From IMG/VR virus record IMGVR_UViG_3300011226_000028: a stretch of 9,262 nucleotides of DNA; one strand, 5' to 3'. Position numbers and translations under genes: made by a program. The notes under the pieces were generated by a model. It had not been told where the DNA came from. It did no database searches and was given only the letters and a program-made list of their open reading frames with translations. This DNA comes from a virus (Duplodnaviria > Heunggongvirae > Uroviricota > Caudoviricetes). Below, piece by piece: positions 1,401 through 9,241 of this stretch. Numbering within the stretch: position 1 is the first letter of the stretch; every line of letters starts with the position of its first letter.

Positions 1401-1789
1401 AAGGCAGTCTCCTTCGAGTAGCAAATAACTGCTATCGCCGGAGTTCTCACGCTCGATGGCGATAGCCCAGACGGGGGTGAGAATACCGGCCTCGAAGAAT
1501 ACCGGCCAGCCCGGAGGCTGCCCCGCCTGAGCTACCATTGACTCAGTGGCATAACATGCGATTGCGAACAGGATCATACCTGCACGGCAAACCACACGCC
1601 ACACCATAATCTGGCGCTCTGTGGCGTTGATTGCGACACAAAAAAAGACGCATGGCGCGTCATATGTCGCCTTCGAGTTACACGGGTTCTCACGCCCGGC
1701 TGCCGATTTTGCGGCAGCGGAAAAACTATATCCGCAAATGCCGGAAAAAGGCAAGCCAGAAAAAGGGAGTTTTTGCAGAGCGGGCATCA

Positions 1790-2598: not shown

Positions 2599-3333
2599 AT
2601 GTCTGACAACACCATCCCTGAATATCTGCAACCCGCACTGGCACAACTGGAAAAGGCCAGAGCCGCCCACCTTGAGAACGCCCGCCTGATGGATGAGACC
2701 GTCACGGCCATTGAACGGGCAGAGCAGGAAAAAAATGCGCTGACGCAGGCCGACGGAAACGACGCTGACGACTGGCGCACGGCCTTTCGTGCAGCCGGTG
2801 GTGTCCTGAGCGACGAGCTGAAACAGCGCCACATTGAGCGCGTGGCACGCCGGGAGCTGGTACAGGAATATGACAATCTGGCCGTGGTGCTGAATTTTGA
2901 ACGCGAACGCCTGAAAGGGGCGTGTGACAGCACGGCCACCGCCTACCGGAAGGCACATCATCACCTTCTGAGTCTGTATGCAGAGCATGAGCTGGAACAC
3001 GCCCTGAATGAAACCTGTGAGGCGCTTGTCCGGGCAATGCATCTGAGCATTCTGGTACAGGAAAATCCGCTCGCCAACACCACCGGCCATCAGGGCTACG
3101 TCGCACCGGAAAAGGCTGTCATGCAGCAGGTGAAATCATCGCTGGAACAGAAAATTAAACAGATGCAAATCAGCCTCACCGGCGAGCCGGTTCTCCGGCT
3201 GACCGGACTGTCAGTGGCAACACTCCCGCACATGGATTATGAGGTGACAGGCACACCGGCACAGCGCAAGGTGTGGCAGGACAAAATAGACCAGCAGGGA
3301 GCAGAGCTGAAGGCCAGAGGACTGCTGTCATGA
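2599..3333 (+). CDS. sid: P4 Sid-like external capsid size-determination scaffold protein, 244 aa
   Basis: ATG at 2599 with GAGGA about 9 nt upstream (the track ORF starts earlier at 2533); MSDNTIPEYLQPALAQLEKARAAH...; position immediately upstream of delta and psu in the conserved sid-delta-psu order; stop overlaps the delta start (ATGA). Confidence 0.8.
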   Translation: MSDNTIPEYLQPALAQLEKARAAHLENARLMDETVTAIERAEQEKNALTQADGNDADDWRTAFRAAGGVLSDELKQRHIERVARRELVQEYDNLAVVLNFERERLKGACDSTATAYRKAHHHLLSLYAEHELEHALNETCEALVRAMHLSILVQENPLANTTGHQGYVAPEKAVMQQVKSSLEQKIKQMQISLTGEPVLRLTGLSVATLPHMDYEVTGTPAQRKVWQDKIDQQGAELKARGLLS

Positions 3334-3830
3334 TTTACTGCCCGTCGTGTGGACATGTTGCTCACACCCGTCGCGCACATTTCATGGACGATGGCACCAA
3401 GATAATGATTGCACAGTGCCGGAATATTTATTGCTCTGCGACATTTGAAGCGAGTGAAAGCTTTTTCTCTGACTGTAAAGATTCAGGAATGGAATACATT
3501 TCAGGCAAACAGAGATACCGCGATTCACTGACGTCAGCCTCCGGCAGTATGAAACGCCCGAAAAGAATGCTTGTTACCGGATATTGTTGTCGGAGATGTA
3601 AAGGCCTTGCACTGTCAAGAACATCGCGGCGTCTGTCTCAGGAAGTCACCGAACGTTTTTATGTGTGCACGGATCCGGGCTGTGGTCTGGTGTTTAAAAC
3701 GCTTCAGACCATCAACCGCTTCATTGTCCGCCCGGTCACACCGGACGAACTGGCAGAATGCCTGCATGAAAAACAGGAACTGCCGCCAGTACGGTTAAAA
3801 ACACAATCATATTCGCTGCGTCTGGAATGA
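3330..3830 (+). CDS. delta: P4 Delta-like late transcription activator (two tandem Ogr-type zinc-finger domains), 166 aa
   Basis: Begins MIYCPSCGHVAHTRRAHF... (Ogr-like Cys cluster) and contains a second copy ...YCCRRCKGLALSRTSRRL...YVCTDPGCG; ATG overlaps the sid stop; lies between sid and psu. Confidence 0.8.
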   Translation: MIYCPSCGHVAHTRRAHFMDDGTKIMIAQCRNIYCSATFEASESFFSDCKDSGMEYISGKQRYRDSLTSASGSMKRPKRMLVTGYCCRRCKGLALSRTSRRLSQEVTERFYVCTDPGCGLVFKTLQTINRFIVRPVTPDELAECLHEKQELPPVRLKTQSYSLRLE

Positions 3831-3903: not shown

Positions 3904-4139
3904 ATGGAAAGCACAGCCTTACAGCAGGCCTTTGACACCTGTCAGAATAACAAAGCAGCATGGCTGCAACGCAAAAATGAGCTGGCAGCGGCCGAACAGG
4001 AATACCTGCGGCTTCTGTCAGGAGAAGGCAGAAACGTCAGTCGCCTGGACGAATTACGCAATATTATCGAAGTCAGAAAATGGCAGGTGAATCAGGCCGC
4101 CAGTCGTTATATTCGTTCGCATGAAGCCGTTCAGCACAT
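3904..4139 (+). pseudogene. psu: psu (P4 polarity suppression / capsid decoration, Rho inhibitor), 5' fragment interrupted by IS3
   Basis: MESTALQQAFDTCQNNKAAWLQRKNELAAAEQEY...HEAVQHI then runs directly into the IS3 terminal inverted repeat at 4140. Confidence 0.8.
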
Positions 4140-4169
4140 TGATCCTACCCACGTAATATGGACACAGGC

Positions 4170-5036
4170 CTAAGCGAGGTTCTGGTTTTCAAATTGTTCC
4201 GGACTGAGGCCGCCACACCAACTGTGCCGCCGCCACCGATTGTAATCACATTCGATATAATTAAACACCGTTGCCCGCATTATTTCCCGGCTGATAAAGT
4301 GTTCTCCATGGATACATTCCACTTTCAGCGAATGAAAGAAGCTTTCCACGCAGGCATTATCGTAGCAGCAACCTTTTGCGCTCATACTTCCACGCAGATT
4401 ATGCCGCTTCAGTTGCGCCTGATAATCTGCTGAACAGTACTGGCCTCCACGGTCCGTGTGAACGATAACGTTCCGGGGCCTCTTACGCCGCCACAGCGCC
4501 ATCTGCAGGGCATCGCAGGCCAGTTGCGCCGTCATGCGTGGCGACATTGACCAGCCAATAACGGCACGTGACCACAGGTCAATGACCACTGCCAGATACA
4601 GCCAGCCTTCATCTGTACGTAAGTACGTGATGTCTCCTGCCCACTTCTGGTTCGGGCCACTGGCGTAAAAATCCTGCTCCAACAGATTTTCTGACACAGG
4701 CAGGCCGTGTGCGCGGTAGCTGACCGGGCTGAACTTCCGGGAGGCCTTTGCCCTCAGTCCCTGACGGCGCAGGCTTGCCGCCACGGTTTTTACGTTAAAG
4801 GGGTAACCCTGAGCACGCAGTTCATCCGTCAGGCGTGGGGCACCGTAACGCTGTTTTGACCGGGTAAAAGCCGCGAGGACAACGCTGTCGCAGTGTTGGC
4901 GGAACTGCTGACGCGTGCTTATCCTTGTCCGCCGCTGACACCACGTATACCAGCCGCTGCGGGCCACCCGGAGCACGCGGCACATTGCTTTGATGCTGAA
5001 CTCAGCCTGATGTTTTTCAATAAAGACATACTTCAT
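4170..5036 (-). CDS. insF: IS3 OrfB (DDE transposase catalytic component; normally made as an OrfAB fusion by -1 frameshifting)
   Basis: 288-aa ORF with DDE-type motifs ([27 protein letters not shown]); overlaps orfA in the -1 frame as in the IS3 family. Confidence 0.85.
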
Positions 5037-5341
5037 TTCAGGCGCTTCGCGAAGTATGTCGCGGCCTTTTGGAGGATAGCCAGCTCTTCATCCCGTTCTG
5101 CCAGCTGGCGTTTGAGACGTGCAATCTCGGTAGACATCTCCAGTTCACGTTCAGAAGACGTCTGCTGATTTTGCTGTTTACTGCGCCAGTTGTAGAGCTG
5201 TGATTCATACAGGCTGAGTTCACGGGCTGCGGCAGTAACACCGATGCGTTCAGCAAGCTTCAGGGCTTCACTGCGAAATTCAGGCGAATGCTGTTTACGG
5301 GGTTTTTTACTGGTTGATACTGTTTTTGTCATGTGAGTCAC
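5033..5341 (-). CDS. insE: IS3 OrfA (helix-turn-helix transposase N-terminal component)
   Basis: [52 protein letters not shown]... matches IS3 OrfA as I recall it; leucine-zipper-like C-terminus; stop overlaps the orfB ATG (ATGA). Confidence 0.85.
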
Positions 5342-5396: not shown

Positions 5397-5737
5397 ACAT
5401 CAGCATCCGCGACCGGCTGAATGATTTTATGCAGCAGCACGGCACAGTACTGGCGGCCGCACTGGCACCGGAGCTGATGGGCTACAGTGAGCTGACGGCC
5501 ATTGCCCGAAACTGTGCCATACAGCGTGCCACAGATGCCCTGCGTGAAGCCCTCCTGTCCTGGCTTGCGAAGGGGGAAAAAATTAATTATTCCGCACAGG
5601 ATAGCGACATTTTAACGACCATCGGATTCAGGCCTGACGCGGCTTCGGTGGATGACAGCCGTGAAAAATTCACCCCTGCGCAGAACATGATTTTTTCGCG
5701 TAAAAGTGCGCAACTGGCATCACGTCAGTCTGTGTAA
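5397..5737 (+). pseudogene. psu: psu, 3' fragment downstream of the IS3 insertion
   Basis: In-frame translation from about 5402 reads SIRDRLNDFMQQHGTVLAAALAPELMGYSELTAIARN...ASRQSV; the track ORF 5429..5737 is its ATG-initiated portion. Confidence 0.75.
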
Positions 5738-5799: not shown

Positions 5800-5901
5800 T
5801 TGCATGCGTTTTCCTGCCTCATTTTCTGCAGACCGCGCCATTCCCGGCGCGGCCTGAGCGTGTCAGTGCAACTGCATTAAAACCGCCCCACAAAGCGGGC
5901 G

Positions 5902-5920
5902 GGCGAGGCGGGGAAAGCAC
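5902..5920. other. P2/P4-type cos site (19-nt cohesive-end sequence)
   Basis: GGCGAGGCGGGGAAAGCAC matches the P2/P4 cohesive-end sequence as I recall it; GC-rich context, located just past psu as in P4. Confidence 0.6.
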
Positions 5921-6016: not shown

Positions 6017-7779
6017 TTATTGCGATGCGTCTTCTTTTAAAGCGATGCTTTGTTCTAAAGCTTCTTTTATGCGTTTAACGCATTCTGTTAGTTCAATTAT
6101 GGCTCCGCGTCGAAAAGAACTGTTAATTTTTTTATGATGAGCGTTTATGGCTGAATGTAGCTTCTTAAGGTATGGTAGTTCAGCAGAAAGGTAGTCCGCA
6201 AGATTTGAGAAGTTATAGAGTGATGATAGATGGTTTGAAAACAACTGAATATCGCGAATGGACCAAGTGTTTTTTATTCCATGTATGATTAGGTTTACAT
6301 CTAATGTTTCAAGTGGATTAAATTTGAATTTTGATTGATAAATATCCATATCAATAGCACTCCAACCGTTAACATTCATTTTTTCTTTCAATTCTTTTAT
6401 TTTCTCCTCCTTTATTATATCGCAATATTTATCAAGGAAGTAATTATGAAGTTCATTTCCTTCTCTCCTTAATATATGTGGTGGAATATTATCAATGTTG
6501 GGATTTGATTCTAGGAAATATTCTTTTATTTCTTCATTACTAAAGCTACGTTTGTTTTTTTCAATGGTTTTGTTGGTTAACCCTCTTATGCGAGGGATGT
6601 ATTTTGATTTTGAGAGTCTAATATAGTTGTTTGTAGCGATTAGCCAAGTAGATAGTGTCGGTGATGAAGTTTTTAGTATTACTTTTTTAATTTCATCCAA
6701 ATAATCATTTTCAGGTATATTATACCATTCCGGTTGTTTTAATGTGGCATAATCACTTTTTTTTAAAGGTTCTTGTGAATTGAATATGTATGGAATTATA
6801 TCCTTTTGAGATATCTCATTAAAACAATATGGAACCATTAAGTTGTTATAAGTCATATGAGCAGTGATATTTAAAAGGTTACTCTCTTCTTCGCTTATTT
6901 TATCTGGATCATTCTCAGATGAAGTCGTAAGTGTTTTGAAAGAAGATGTGATATAATTATGATGAAAATCATTCTCTTGATATGAAAATTTCTCTTTTAG
7001 TATTATATGAGCACAAAGTGAAGTGACTAGGTTTTTGATGTCTATATCAGAGATTTTTTGCTCAGGTTCTTGTTTTTCAAAAAGAGGTGTCAATTTTGAA
7101 ATTACTCTATTAATAATTCGTAGGTTTGTTTCTTCGAACCCAATAATAACCTGAGTGATTAAATATTTATGTCTCTCTTCTAATGGAGCCAGTTTTTGCT
7201 CTAATATATCGGTAAGGTTATTAATAGAGAAATATATTTCGTCGCTTACAACTTTTTCTTTATGACTTAATACCTCACTACTCTGCTTTGAAAAGTTACC
7301 CACTAAAATAAAGTCTAACCGATTATCATTTTGATAACTTTGTAGGCAAAAGGTTGCTATTTCATCTCTCAAAGATTGAGGGATTCTTTCTAGATCATCA
7401 ATGACAAAAACNNNNNNNNNNNNNNNNNNNNNNNNNNNNNNGCACCTGAAATGGTAGATATAATTTGTTCTGTCAACTTTCCAGTGCTTTCGTCTTGGGT
7501 TAATGCTGATGCAGCGCTTGAGGTTAAATCCCCAAGTTTTTTTATCTCTGAAGGGGTGTTTAGATACGTTATGCTTAGCATTCTATCTTTAAAATCTTGT
7601 AAACTGTTTAACCCAAGAACAGACAAATAAAAATGACTCGTATCTGAATAAAGTGTTCTAAATTCAGTTCGAAGGAAATATGTCTTACCTACACCCCATT
7701 CCCCATTTATTAATATCAGACCATCACGTTTCTCTTTCAATATACGAATCAATATAGATACTATAGTACCTTTGGTCAT
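6017..7779 (-). CDS. KAP-family P-loop NTPase, about 587 codons, interrupted by a 30-nt N run; candidate anti-phage defence cargo gene
   Basis: Walker A in the KAP-characteristic form GEWGVGKT (N-terminal ORF 7390..7779) and Walker B-like VFVIDDLER just downstream of the gap (extension of ORF 6017..7372); AGGAG with a 5-nt spacer before the ATG at 7779; strongly AT-rich (about 25% GC in a spot count) compared with flanking genes. Confidence 0.7.
7412..7441. other. Run of 30 N (unknown or masked bases) inside the KAP NTPase gene
   Basis: Literal n characters; the reading frames on the two sides differ by one position, so the true gap length is probably not 30 nt. Confidence 1.
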
Positions 7780-7808
7780 AAAAAGCTCCTTTCAAAATTC
7801 CATTATGA

Positions 7809-8984
7809 TTATTTTATTTTTGGATAAAGTAAGTCACTATACCACTGCATCATATGTAATCTTTTCTCTAAATATTGAGCATGATTATAAGTACCTCTTA
7901 TACTGTTTTTATCAACATGTGCTAATTGCATCTCAATCCATGCACTATCAAATCCATGTTCATGTAAGATTGTCGATAATGAATGTCTAAAACCGTGACC
8001 TGTAGCACGTCCTTTGTAACCAAGTAACTCAATTACTTGAGATACGCTTTCTTTTGAAATTGGTTTGCTACGATTGTTCCTTCCAATAAATATGTAGGGG
8101 TAATGGCCGGTAATAGGCTTGAGTTGTTCGAAAAGGGCAATTACCTGAGTAGATAAAGGAACAATGTGTGGCCTACGCATTTTCATCCTTTCTGCAGGTA
8201 TTTCCCATATGCCTTTCTCAAGATCAACCTCATTCCAAGTAGCCAAACGCATTTCCTGCGTTCTAACGCCGGTCAGCATAACTATCTTAGTAGCATTTTT
8301 AGTAATGATACTTCCGGTATACGCTTCCAAATCCTGAATGAAATGAGGTAGCTCTTCAGCGGATAAAAAAGGATGATGTTTTTGCTTAGGAACAGCCAGA
8401 GCGATGGCTAAATCAGGCGCAGGATTGTATTCAGCACGGCCAGTTATGATCGCATAGCGGTAGACTTCACCACATCTTTGCCGCACTTTTCTGGTCTTCT
8501 CTAATGCCCCACGCTTTTCTATTCTTCGCAATACTTCGAGCAGTTCTAATGGTTTAATTTCACTGATAGGGCGTTTACCAATGAAAGGGAATACATCTTG
8601 CTCAAAAGTCTTCATAATTTCTTCTCGATAGGCCACCGTCCAGCGGTCAGCTTTGTTGGTATGCCATTCTCGACATATTGCTTCGAAAGAATTTTCTGTT
8701 GATAGCTTTTGAGCGAGTCTTAAAGCTTTGCGTTCCTCTACTGGGTCAATGCCATTAGCAACCTGCTTACGGGCGATGTCACGCTTCTCACGTGCTTCTG
8801 CGAGGCTTACTAAATCATAGCTGCCAAATGACATTAACCGCGCTTTCCCAGCAAATCTGAAACGGAAACGCCAGCCTTTCGTGCCATCTGGATTGATAAG
8901 CAACGACAGACCTTGTCCATCGTTCAATGTGTATGGCTTGTCTTGTGGTTTTGCACGTTTGATCTGTGTATCGGTTAGAGCCAT
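7809..8984 (-). CDS. int: P4-type tyrosine integrase (phage integrase family), 391 aa
   Basis: N-terminus MALTDTQIKRAKPQDKPYTLNDGQGLSLLINPDG... typical of P4-like integrases; C-terminal catalytic region GHGFRHSLSTILHE...GTYNHAQY (R, H-x-x-R, Y); adjacent to the 3' end of a tRNA gene. Confidence 0.9.
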   Translation of the reverse strand: MALTDTQIKRAKPQDKPYTLNDGQGLSLLINPDGTKGWRFRFRFAGKARLMSFGSYDLVSLAEAREKRDIARKQVANGIDPVEERKALRLAQKLSTENSFEAICREWHTNKADRWTVAYREEIMKTFEQDVFPFIGKRPISEIKPLELLEVLRRIEKRGALEKTRKVRQRCGEVYRYAIITGRAEYNPAPDLAIALAVPKQKHHPFLSAEELPHFIQDLEAYTGSIITKNATKIVMLTGVRTQEMRLATWNEVDLEKGIWEIPAERMKMRRPHIVPLSTQVIALFEQLKPITGHYPYIFIGRNNRSKPISKESVSQVIELLGYKGRATGHGFRHSLSTILHEHGFDSAWIEMQLAHVDKNSIRGTYNHAQYLEKRLHMMQWYSDLLYPKIK

Positions 8985-9146: not shown

Positions 9147-9241
9147 TGGCGGAAGATCACAGGAGTCGAACCTGCCCGGGACCGCTGGCGGCCCCAACTG
9201 GATTTGAAGTCCAGCCGCCTCACCGGAGACGACGATCTTCC
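9147..9241 (-). tRNA. selC: tRNA-Sec (selenocysteine tRNA, selC), 95 nt, serving as the integration site
   Basis: Reverse complement reads GGAAGATCGTCGTCTCCGGTGAGGCGGCTGGACTTCAAATCCAGTTGGGGCCGCCAGCGGTCCCGGGCAGGTTCGACTCCTGTGATCTTCCGCCA, matching the E. coli selC tRNA as I recall it, including the long variable arm and 3' CCA; the integrase gene lies beyond its 3' end. Confidence 0.9.

Follow-up and report, generated by a model that had tools for sequence, protein, structure and literature searches.

What does the only gene between the cos site and the integrase gene of a P4-like phage satellite do? The question is raised by the Caudoviricetes record IMGVR_UViG_3300011226_000028, a stretch of 9,262 nucleotides (referred to here as the window) that comprises most of a P4-like satellite integrated beside tRNA-Sec. 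An initial annotation, made from the letters alone, had singled out the gene in this slot as a candidate anti-phage defence gene encoding a KAP-family NTPase. The analysis described below indicates that it is very probably an allele of Reve, a single-gene anti-phage system in the P4-like int-cos hotspot that would protect the lysogen. The Reve family was named and validated by experiment in early 2026; the initial guess was thus right, and the function that it proposed is already published.

The int-psu region of P4 was established as a defence hotspot by Rousset et al. (2022), in a study that does not mention the window protein. In the window, this slot is filled by a single cargo gene. When eight P4 hotspots with genes of unknown function were picked at random, six protected Escherichia coli (NAR 54:gkag898; preprint 10.64898/2026.02.27.708500), and Reve was described as a single-gene system (NAR 2026, doi 10.1093/nar/gkag898). 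In the preprint supplement (10.64898/2026.02.27.708500), the entry flanked by Toga (Unknown 6, pFD424) and Hailong (Unknown 8, pFD426) is annotated with PF13401 and PF07693, with KAP as the top HHpred match and human ORC as the top Foldseek match. The authors' signature for Reve (PF13401 together with PF07693, and ORC as the top Foldseek match) was reproduced for the window protein. In addition, the synthesized insert 'Syst.19_UnknownSys7' measures 2196 nt and extends from the 3' end of an integrase gene to cos, as does the slot of the window. From the serial numbering and the matching domain annotation, pFD425, UnknownSys7 and Reve were identified as the same system.

The product of the UnknownSys7 insert, 586 aa long, departs at 3 residues from P0035, a relative whose gene occupies the same yicJ/tRNA-Sec int-psu slot. 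Alignment of the UnknownSys7 protein with the window-type protein gives 62.6% identity (368 of 588 columns) with only two gap columns, both terminal, and BLASTP of the window-type protein against P0035 returns 63% identity and 82% positives with 0 gaps over 582 residues. Reve and the window protein (586 versus 588 aa) are therefore colinear over their full length without internal gaps, and they share the int-cos slot, the kind of satellite, the yicJ/tRNA-Sec site, the Pfam pair and the matches to ORC-like folds. They differ in approximately 37% of their residues, spread over both domains, and their target range may differ as well. The exact DNA strings of the window are missing from the sequence datasets of the gkag898 paper, and the link to Reve is made at the protein level only. 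Full-length homology, the same slot and the same domain signature together argue for placing the gene in the Reve family.

The plaque data for pFD425 comprise two replicates. The efficiency of plating (EOP) ranged from 2.5e-6 to 4e-6 for Bas01 and Bas11, equalled 2.9e-5 for Bas09, and lay between 2.5e-4 and 5e-4 for Bas12, 0.002 and 0.004 for Bas13, and 0.003 and 0.0125 for Bas02, with a value of about 0.02 for Bas04 (overall range for Bas02, Bas04 and Bas13, 0.002 to 0.025). All seven of these phages are Drexlerviridae; they formed small plaques, and their plaquing was reduced 40- to 400,000-fold with pFD425. EOP values of 0.004 to 0.012 and 0.02 to 0.1 were recorded for Bas58 and Bas63, respectively, and pFD425 was without reproducible effect on lambda, Bas18, Bas20, Bas24, T5-like phages, P1, T4 and T7. 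The initial annotation had derived an anti-phage function from context only. That caveat is superseded by these published experiments, in which a full-length, 63%-identical homologue from the same slot was cloned and protects E. coli.

The gene could also serve the life cycle of the satellite itself, for example through helper exploitation, control of replication or packaging, or superinfection immunity against other P2/P4 elements, in which case the Reve plaque phenotype would be a side effect of overexpression. In line with this, the fold resembles that of the replication-initiator and loader ATPases ORC/Cdc6, TnsC and MuB, coupling to int is tight (29 nt between the stop codon of int and the ATG of the gene), and Reve was assayed under pTet induction only. 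However, the slot is a known variable defence hotspot that carries unrelated genes in other P4-like elements, and other genes of the element provide the core P4 functions. Moreover, the phenotype is specific to phage families and reaches 10^5.6-fold, unlike general sickness, and the wider family matches a candidate model derived from defence islands and also exists outside satellites. We consider a life-cycle role highly improbable and retain the assignment to the Reve family.

As written in the window, the gene is interrupted by a run of 30 N between the Walker A and Walker B motifs, which the initial annotation did not mention. Read literally, these bases leave the last 464 codons out of frame with the first 112, and the mechanical list of open reading frames (ORFs) accordingly contains two ORFs of 129 and 451 aa. 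DNA at least 99% identical is present in 12 of 5426 complete E. coli genomes, including ATCC 8739 and its derivatives, DAX4 and ETEC-2265. In ATCC 8739, the masked stretch measures 34 nt and encodes AMRDYVLKDLSG, which yields a single frame of 588 codons; its product is WP_000160301.1, annotated as 'AAA family ATPase'. Two separate ORFs were rejected on this alignment, as 34 nt are hidden behind 30 N. The boundaries first proposed for the gene proved correct, with ATG and TAA on the minus strand (Table 1), and the earlier count of roughly 587 codons becomes 588 in the restored frame.

If the N run concealed a frameshift or another lesion, the window copy would be a pseudogene and no full-length protein would be made. 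The two halves are indeed out of frame as written, and the neighboring psu gene has already been inactivated by an IS3-family insertion sequence (IS), so that some decay has occurred. In contrast, a second N run of 10 bases (2094-2103), located in AT-rich intergenic DNA that separates the AlpA-type and sid-like genes, makes masking a property of the data rather than of this gene, and the hidden 34 nt are open in all 12 genomes with flanks at least 99% identical. Outside the mask, the window protein shows a single difference from WP_000160301.1 in 576 residues (E417 for K), which is conservative, and no stop codon. A pseudogene is thus a very faint prospect. Because of the open frame in near-identical genomes and the single residue difference, the gene is taken to be intact, which the comparison makes probable.

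The protein has both nucleotide-binding motifs read in the initial annotation, GEWGVGKT as Walker A and VFVIDDLER as Walker B. Conservation was assessed in an alignment of 52 sequences reaching down to 15% identity. Apart from the Walker residues (Table 1), S53, K177 and the conserved lid arginine R222 are invariant in this alignment, and C146, E176, N220, W507, F515, Y523 and E535 are nearly so. The two motifs take the forms GxWGxGK[ST] and hhhDDxxR, which are reportedly diagnostic of KAP NTPases, and the aligned Walker A of PifA reads GAWGSGKT.

The assignment to the KAP family holds in part. Pfam KAP_NTPase (PF07693) matches the window protein marginally: its score of 20.7 bits barely exceeds the cut-off of 20, and the match is limited to residues 18-45, equivalent to profile positions 19-46 of 293 and hence to the Walker A stretch only. 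AAA_22 (PF13401) scores higher, with 31.9 bits (cut-off 27) over residues 17-162. PifA of the F plasmid, for comparison, matches the KAP profile with 148.5 bits over positions 2-290, and hhalign of the family against PifA reaches a probability of 35% over 38 columns around Walker A. Among the 52 members of the wider family, 44 match KAP_NTPase (best E = 2.8e-13), some of them spanning profile positions 3-220 of 293. The assignment is convincing at the level of the family, as far as profile matches go, but membership is not securely established for the window protein taken alone. The protein appears to represent a divergent branch without a transmembrane (TM) segment, on the margin of the KAP family, and 'KAP-like' seems a fair description.

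In PADLOC, the translated gene matches PDC-S49, a predicted single-gene defence candidate. PDLC05031 is the best model (E = 1.2e-14, 52 bits), aligned from residue 22 to 317 with profile positions 27-338 of 624, and 51 of the 52 wider-family members match PDC-S49 as well (best E = 5e-63). The match covers the N-terminal half of the window protein only, and this partial coverage may be the reason that Reve was taken to lack a PADLOC annotation in the NAR study. In the same scan, the window protein matched neither Tmn nor any other named system. Literature searches for 'PDC-S49' and 'WP_000160301' found no papers mentioning either term, and searches of NCBIfam, PHROGs and PDB sequences with the protein returned nothing informative.

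The initial annotation had seen no hydrophobic TM insert between the Walker motifs and had called this atypical for KAP proteins. The absence itself was borne out: the maximal 19-residue Kyte-Doolittle mean is 0.87 between the motifs and 1.18 overall (threshold of approximately 1.6), with no TM segment in the protein, and 49 of the 52 relatives also stay below 1.6. Judged by this profile, the NTPase protein is soluble. Its atypicality was overstated, however, because PifA, the founding bacterial KAP protein, has been reported to lack TM helices too. Like PifA, the window protein would be a single-protein phage exclusion system on a mobile element, with a GxWGxGKT Walker A and a large C-terminal region. 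PifA differs in its length (741 aa), in covering the whole KAP profile and in excluding T7, which Reve leaves unblocked.

The similarity to PifA raises the possibility of action at the membrane, as in the classical KAP/transmembrane NTPases: PifA causes leakage upon T7 infection, and Tmn (Gao et al. 2020), which corresponds to the YobI family according to a 2026 preprint (PMC13001434), causes Mg2+ export and plasmolysis. The weak KAP_NTPase match and the KAP-like Walker A fit such a mode of action, and PifA works at the membrane although it has no TM helices either. Nevertheless, a TM-grade segment is missing from the protein and from nearly all of its relatives, the PifA model is touched by only one of the 52 relatives and the Tmn models by none, the hhalign match to PifA is short, and Reve gives no protection against T7, the target of PifA. 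Membrane action is therefore improbable. Tmn is likewise a defence system consisting of one P-loop NTPase gene, and its antiviral response involves ATP turnover, but it has a TM hairpin in its P-loop domain and forms a membrane decamer. Membership in Tmn was rejected for the protein and its 52 relatives, given the lack of a TM segment and of matches to Tmn models.

An AlphaFold2 model built from 33 homologues (predicted local distance difference test, pLDDT, 78.6) predicts a P-loop core of five strands and a helical lid that extends to approximately residue 240. A low-confidence, non-hydrophobic helical insert lies between Walker A and B (from residue 74 to about 117-120), and a flexible linker (280-293) leads to an all-alpha C-terminal region of approximately 300 residues that is confidently modelled. 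The C-terminal part is composed of 11.3% I, 10.4% L, 9.5% K, 8.9% E, 8.9% S and 8.6% N. Foldseek searches of the PDB with the N-terminal module place ORC4/5 and Cdc6/Orc1 at the top (E of approximately 1e-4); the fold also resembles that of the loader ATPases TnsC and MuB, and the defence ATPases RdrA, Avs3 and BrxC match as well. The model thus points to a generic AAA+/STAND-like switch without a specific solved neighbor. The N-terminal module falls into the same fold class as the STAND/AAA+ defence ATPases (Avs, RdrA of RADAR, BrxC), but the window protein has neither the TPR sensor nor the attached effector nor the winged-helix domain found among these and the ORC/Cdc6/TnsC ATPases. STAND membership was rejected since no NACHT or NB-ARC match rose above threshold (NACHT E = 0.08), and membership among the ORC/Cdc6 initiators was rejected for want of a winged-helix DNA-binding domain.

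The C-terminal domain carries a conserved patch (W507, D511, Y523, E535 and S556-G560), which might represent an unrecognized catalytic or toxic effector with a new fold that is switched on by the NTPase, in the manner of a classical sensor-NTPase-effector system. The patch residues show little or no variation down to 15-25% identity, and the domain that holds them is modelled with confidence. A precedent exists in EF_KAP, an Enterococcus protein in which a KAP-type NTPase is followed by a C-terminal region of approximately 300 aa of unknown fold, and in which Walker B and this C-terminal region are both required for defence (PLoS Biol 2026, e3003991). EF_KAP differs in having two TM helices, and a sequence relationship to the window protein was not found in the searches run. 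Fold searches with the C-terminal domain recovered resemblance to helical repeats only, and an enzyme fold was not recognized. We regard such a hidden effector as a minor, rather unlikely possibility.

For the Reve family itself, we tentatively favor a sensor-switch mechanism, though its steps taken together are less likely to be right than wrong. The protein would act as a cytosolic sensor-switch ATPase, whose C-terminal helical domain may recognize a phage-made protein or structure, in the case of Reve something typical of the T1-like Drexlerviridae. Recognition would release ATP binding or hydrolysis and oligomerization of the ORC/TnsC-like N-terminal module. The assembled ATPase could then itself be the effector, either by runaway consumption of ATP or by clamping or remodelling a component of phage replication or packaging, with no attached nuclease, protease or pore domain as effector. 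The lysogen, and hence the satellite, would be protected from unrelated lytic phages. The invariance of several Walker residues, K177 and R222, the AAA+ switch/loader-type fold, the purely helical-repeat resemblance of the C-terminal domain and the lack of a TM segment are consistent with a switch of this kind. No partner gene was found in the slot of the window or at the inspected homologue loci in satellites. Further support is by analogy: Tmn has been described to raise ATP turnover on sensing phage RIIB, EF_KAP depends on both Walker B and its C-terminal region, and Avs, RdrA and BrxC are of the same fold class.

Several points weigh against the view that the gene is a protective Reve-family allele. 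The equation of pFD425 with UnknownSys7 and Reve rests on serial numbering and matching annotation, and the 37% divergence from Reve could change or abolish the specificity of this allele. Reve was assayed in two replicates from an induced pTet plasmid promoter, and its expression and effect in the native context may differ. The 34 masked bases cannot be read, so that intactness in the window depends on 12 near-identical genomes, and the satellite may be decaying, as its psu gene is split by an IS element. The argument that the protein has no effector domain is negative evidence from fold searches. Finally, a promoter scan of the region 5' of the gene was at chance level (12 sites found, 11.2 expected). 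Because of this result and the 29-nt gap, the gene is likely co-transcribed with int.

Relatives of the protein are numerous. A word-indexed search recovered 53 of them, mostly from Enterobacterales at 55-100% identity (Escherichia, Salmonella, Klebsiella, Shimwellia, Pectobacterium, Serratia, Yersinia, Kosakonia, Hafnia, Citrobacter and Mangrovibacter) and a few more distant. An exhaustive profile search of 1.84 billion representatives gave 85 clusters at E < 1e-30, 428 at E < 1e-10 and 2812 at E < 1e-3, the strong ones mostly full-length (570-615 aa), and a genome scan found relatives of the NTPase domain in many phyla. In the P4-like satellites inspected, the homologue is always the single gene that separates int from psu/delta. 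Same-slot homologues share 75% identity with the window protein in Klebsiella, 71% in Yersinia, 63% in E. coli, 59% in Citrobacter and Salmonella-type contigs and 31% in Serratia fonticola; the P4-hotspot neighborhood thus recurs in five other genera. These satellites reside at several chromosomal sites, namely yicJ/tRNA-Sec, xylR, proA and smpB.

The S. fonticola satellite has, just past its primase end, an ApeA-type HEPN defence gene (L011 16556-17743), which may be another defence locus, at the opposite end from the NTPase homologue. A full-length, 63%-identical homologue is also encoded on a 3.6-kb contig assigned to 'uncultured Streptococcus sp.' (MGYG-HGUT-03797; L017 1815-3560), most likely a fragment of an enterobacterial satellite placed in the wrong bin. 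Outside Enterobacterales, full-length relatives at 24-26% identity occur in Pseudoalteromonas lipolytica (L012 8001-9644), Shewanella (L019) and Pseudoalteromonas (L020). The P. lipolytica locus, the one inspected (25% identity), is without an integrase, a satellite or an obvious defence neighbor. Because this relative lies outside any satellite, the family is not confined to P4 hotspots.

This breadth also bears on a bolder proposal, namely that the Reve family forms a new mechanistic class of soluble, effector-less KAP/ORC-like switch ATPases extending well beyond P4 satellites, in which the C-terminal domain captures a component of phage replication or packaging and the ATPase halts infection by clamping, remodelling or ATP drain, with no need of a nuclease, protease, NADase or pore domain. 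The approximately 85 clusters (at the 50% identity level) with E < 1e-30 and the NTPase-domain relatives in many phyla are compatible with this idea, which we nonetheless rate as speculative and on the unlikely side. If it were true, alleles 63% identical to Reve would carry different phage specificities, and the satellite slot would be a natural library of sensor variants.

The surrounding DNA agrees with the P4-like satellite named in the initial annotation: int, cos, sid, delta and psu, an AlpA-type gene, C4 antisense RNA and isrK were all found beside tRNA-Sec (Table 1). The sid-like, delta and psu genes lie on the plus strand, and the AlpA-type regulator gene belongs to the satellite as well. 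The NTPase gene is, as first read, the sole gene between cos and int. The 19-nt cos is an exact P2/P4 match, with no matches in 200 shuffles. C4 antisense RNA, isrK and the c4-a1b1 element make up a P4-type RNA immunity region (1455-1731).

Table 1 Features of the window around the Reve-family NTPase gene and in the rest of the satellite
Feature	Position	Strand	Remarks
Reve-family P-loop NTPase gene (very probable assignment)	6017..7779	-	ATG 7777-7779, TAA 6017-6019; 588 codons with mask restored
Shine-Dalgarno AAGGAG	7786..7791	-	6 nt 5' of ATG
N-terminal AAA+/KAP-like NTPase module with helical lid, residues ~1-240 (predicted)	7064..7779	-	
Walker A GEWGVGKT (residues 26-33)	7681..7704	-	W28, G29, G31 and K32 invariant in 52-sequence alignment
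Run of 30 N (mask)	7412..7441	.	Between Walker A and B; hides residues 113-124, AMRDYVLKDLSG
Walker B VFVIDDLER (residues 125-133)	7385..7411	-	D129, D130 and R133 invariant; E132 nearly so
C-terminal all-alpha domain, residues 295-588 (predicted)	6020..6901	-	Patch W507, D511, F515, Y523, E535
cos core GGCGAGGCGGGGAAAGCAC	5902..5920	+	Exact 19-nt P2/P4 cos; downstream hotspot boundary
Terminator-like GC-rich hairpin and T run	5883..5902	-	Consensus match only; past cos, 3' of NTPase gene
P4-type tyrosine integrase gene (int)	7809..8984	-	Upstream hotspot boundary
tRNA-Sec	9147..9241	-	Satellite attachment site
C4 antisense RNA	1455-1542	-	Rfam, 74 bits
isrK	1641-1718	-	Rfam, 71 bits
c4-a1b1 target element	1679-1731	-	Rfam, 50 bits

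The GC content rises from 31% in the NTPase gene to 41.5% in int and 53% in the remaining satellite. Judging from this gradient, the cargo seems to derive from a low-GC source via recombination within int, perhaps together with the 3' part of int.

The psu gene is split into an N-terminal and a C-terminal part on the plus strand (3904-4173 and 5429-5737) by an IS3-family element on the minus strand (4170-5341; orfA 5033-5341, orfB 4170-5036), and Psu function has probably been lost in this copy of the satellite because of it. The insertion is missing from the E. coli genomes with the same NTPase allele, the best of which cover 86% of the window. The Delta ORF (3273-3830, plus strand) starts with GTG and encodes 185 aa with, by eye, two Ogr/Delta-type zinc-finger units (CPSCG...C..C and CCRRC...C..C). 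In the ATCC 8739 satellite, which diverges from that of the window in this region, the annotated protein has 81 aa and a single unit.

The locus illustrates that a tool-free reading of raw sequence singled out a real defence gene, which was independently validated in 2026 in the form of its homologue Reve. The analysis joins three labels that were unconnected, namely the RefSeq 'AAA family ATPase' WP_000160301.1, the PADLOC candidate PDC-S49 and Reve, and indicates that the family reaches past Enterobacterales and past satellites. The mechanistic question that follows is how T1-like phages are blocked by a soluble ATPase whose C-terminal domain is only helical and which has no recognizable effector, and a further one is whether diverged alleles such as that of the window carry different phage specificities. 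A natural allele 63% identical to Reve is a useful reagent, as it lends itself to specificity mapping by domain swaps.

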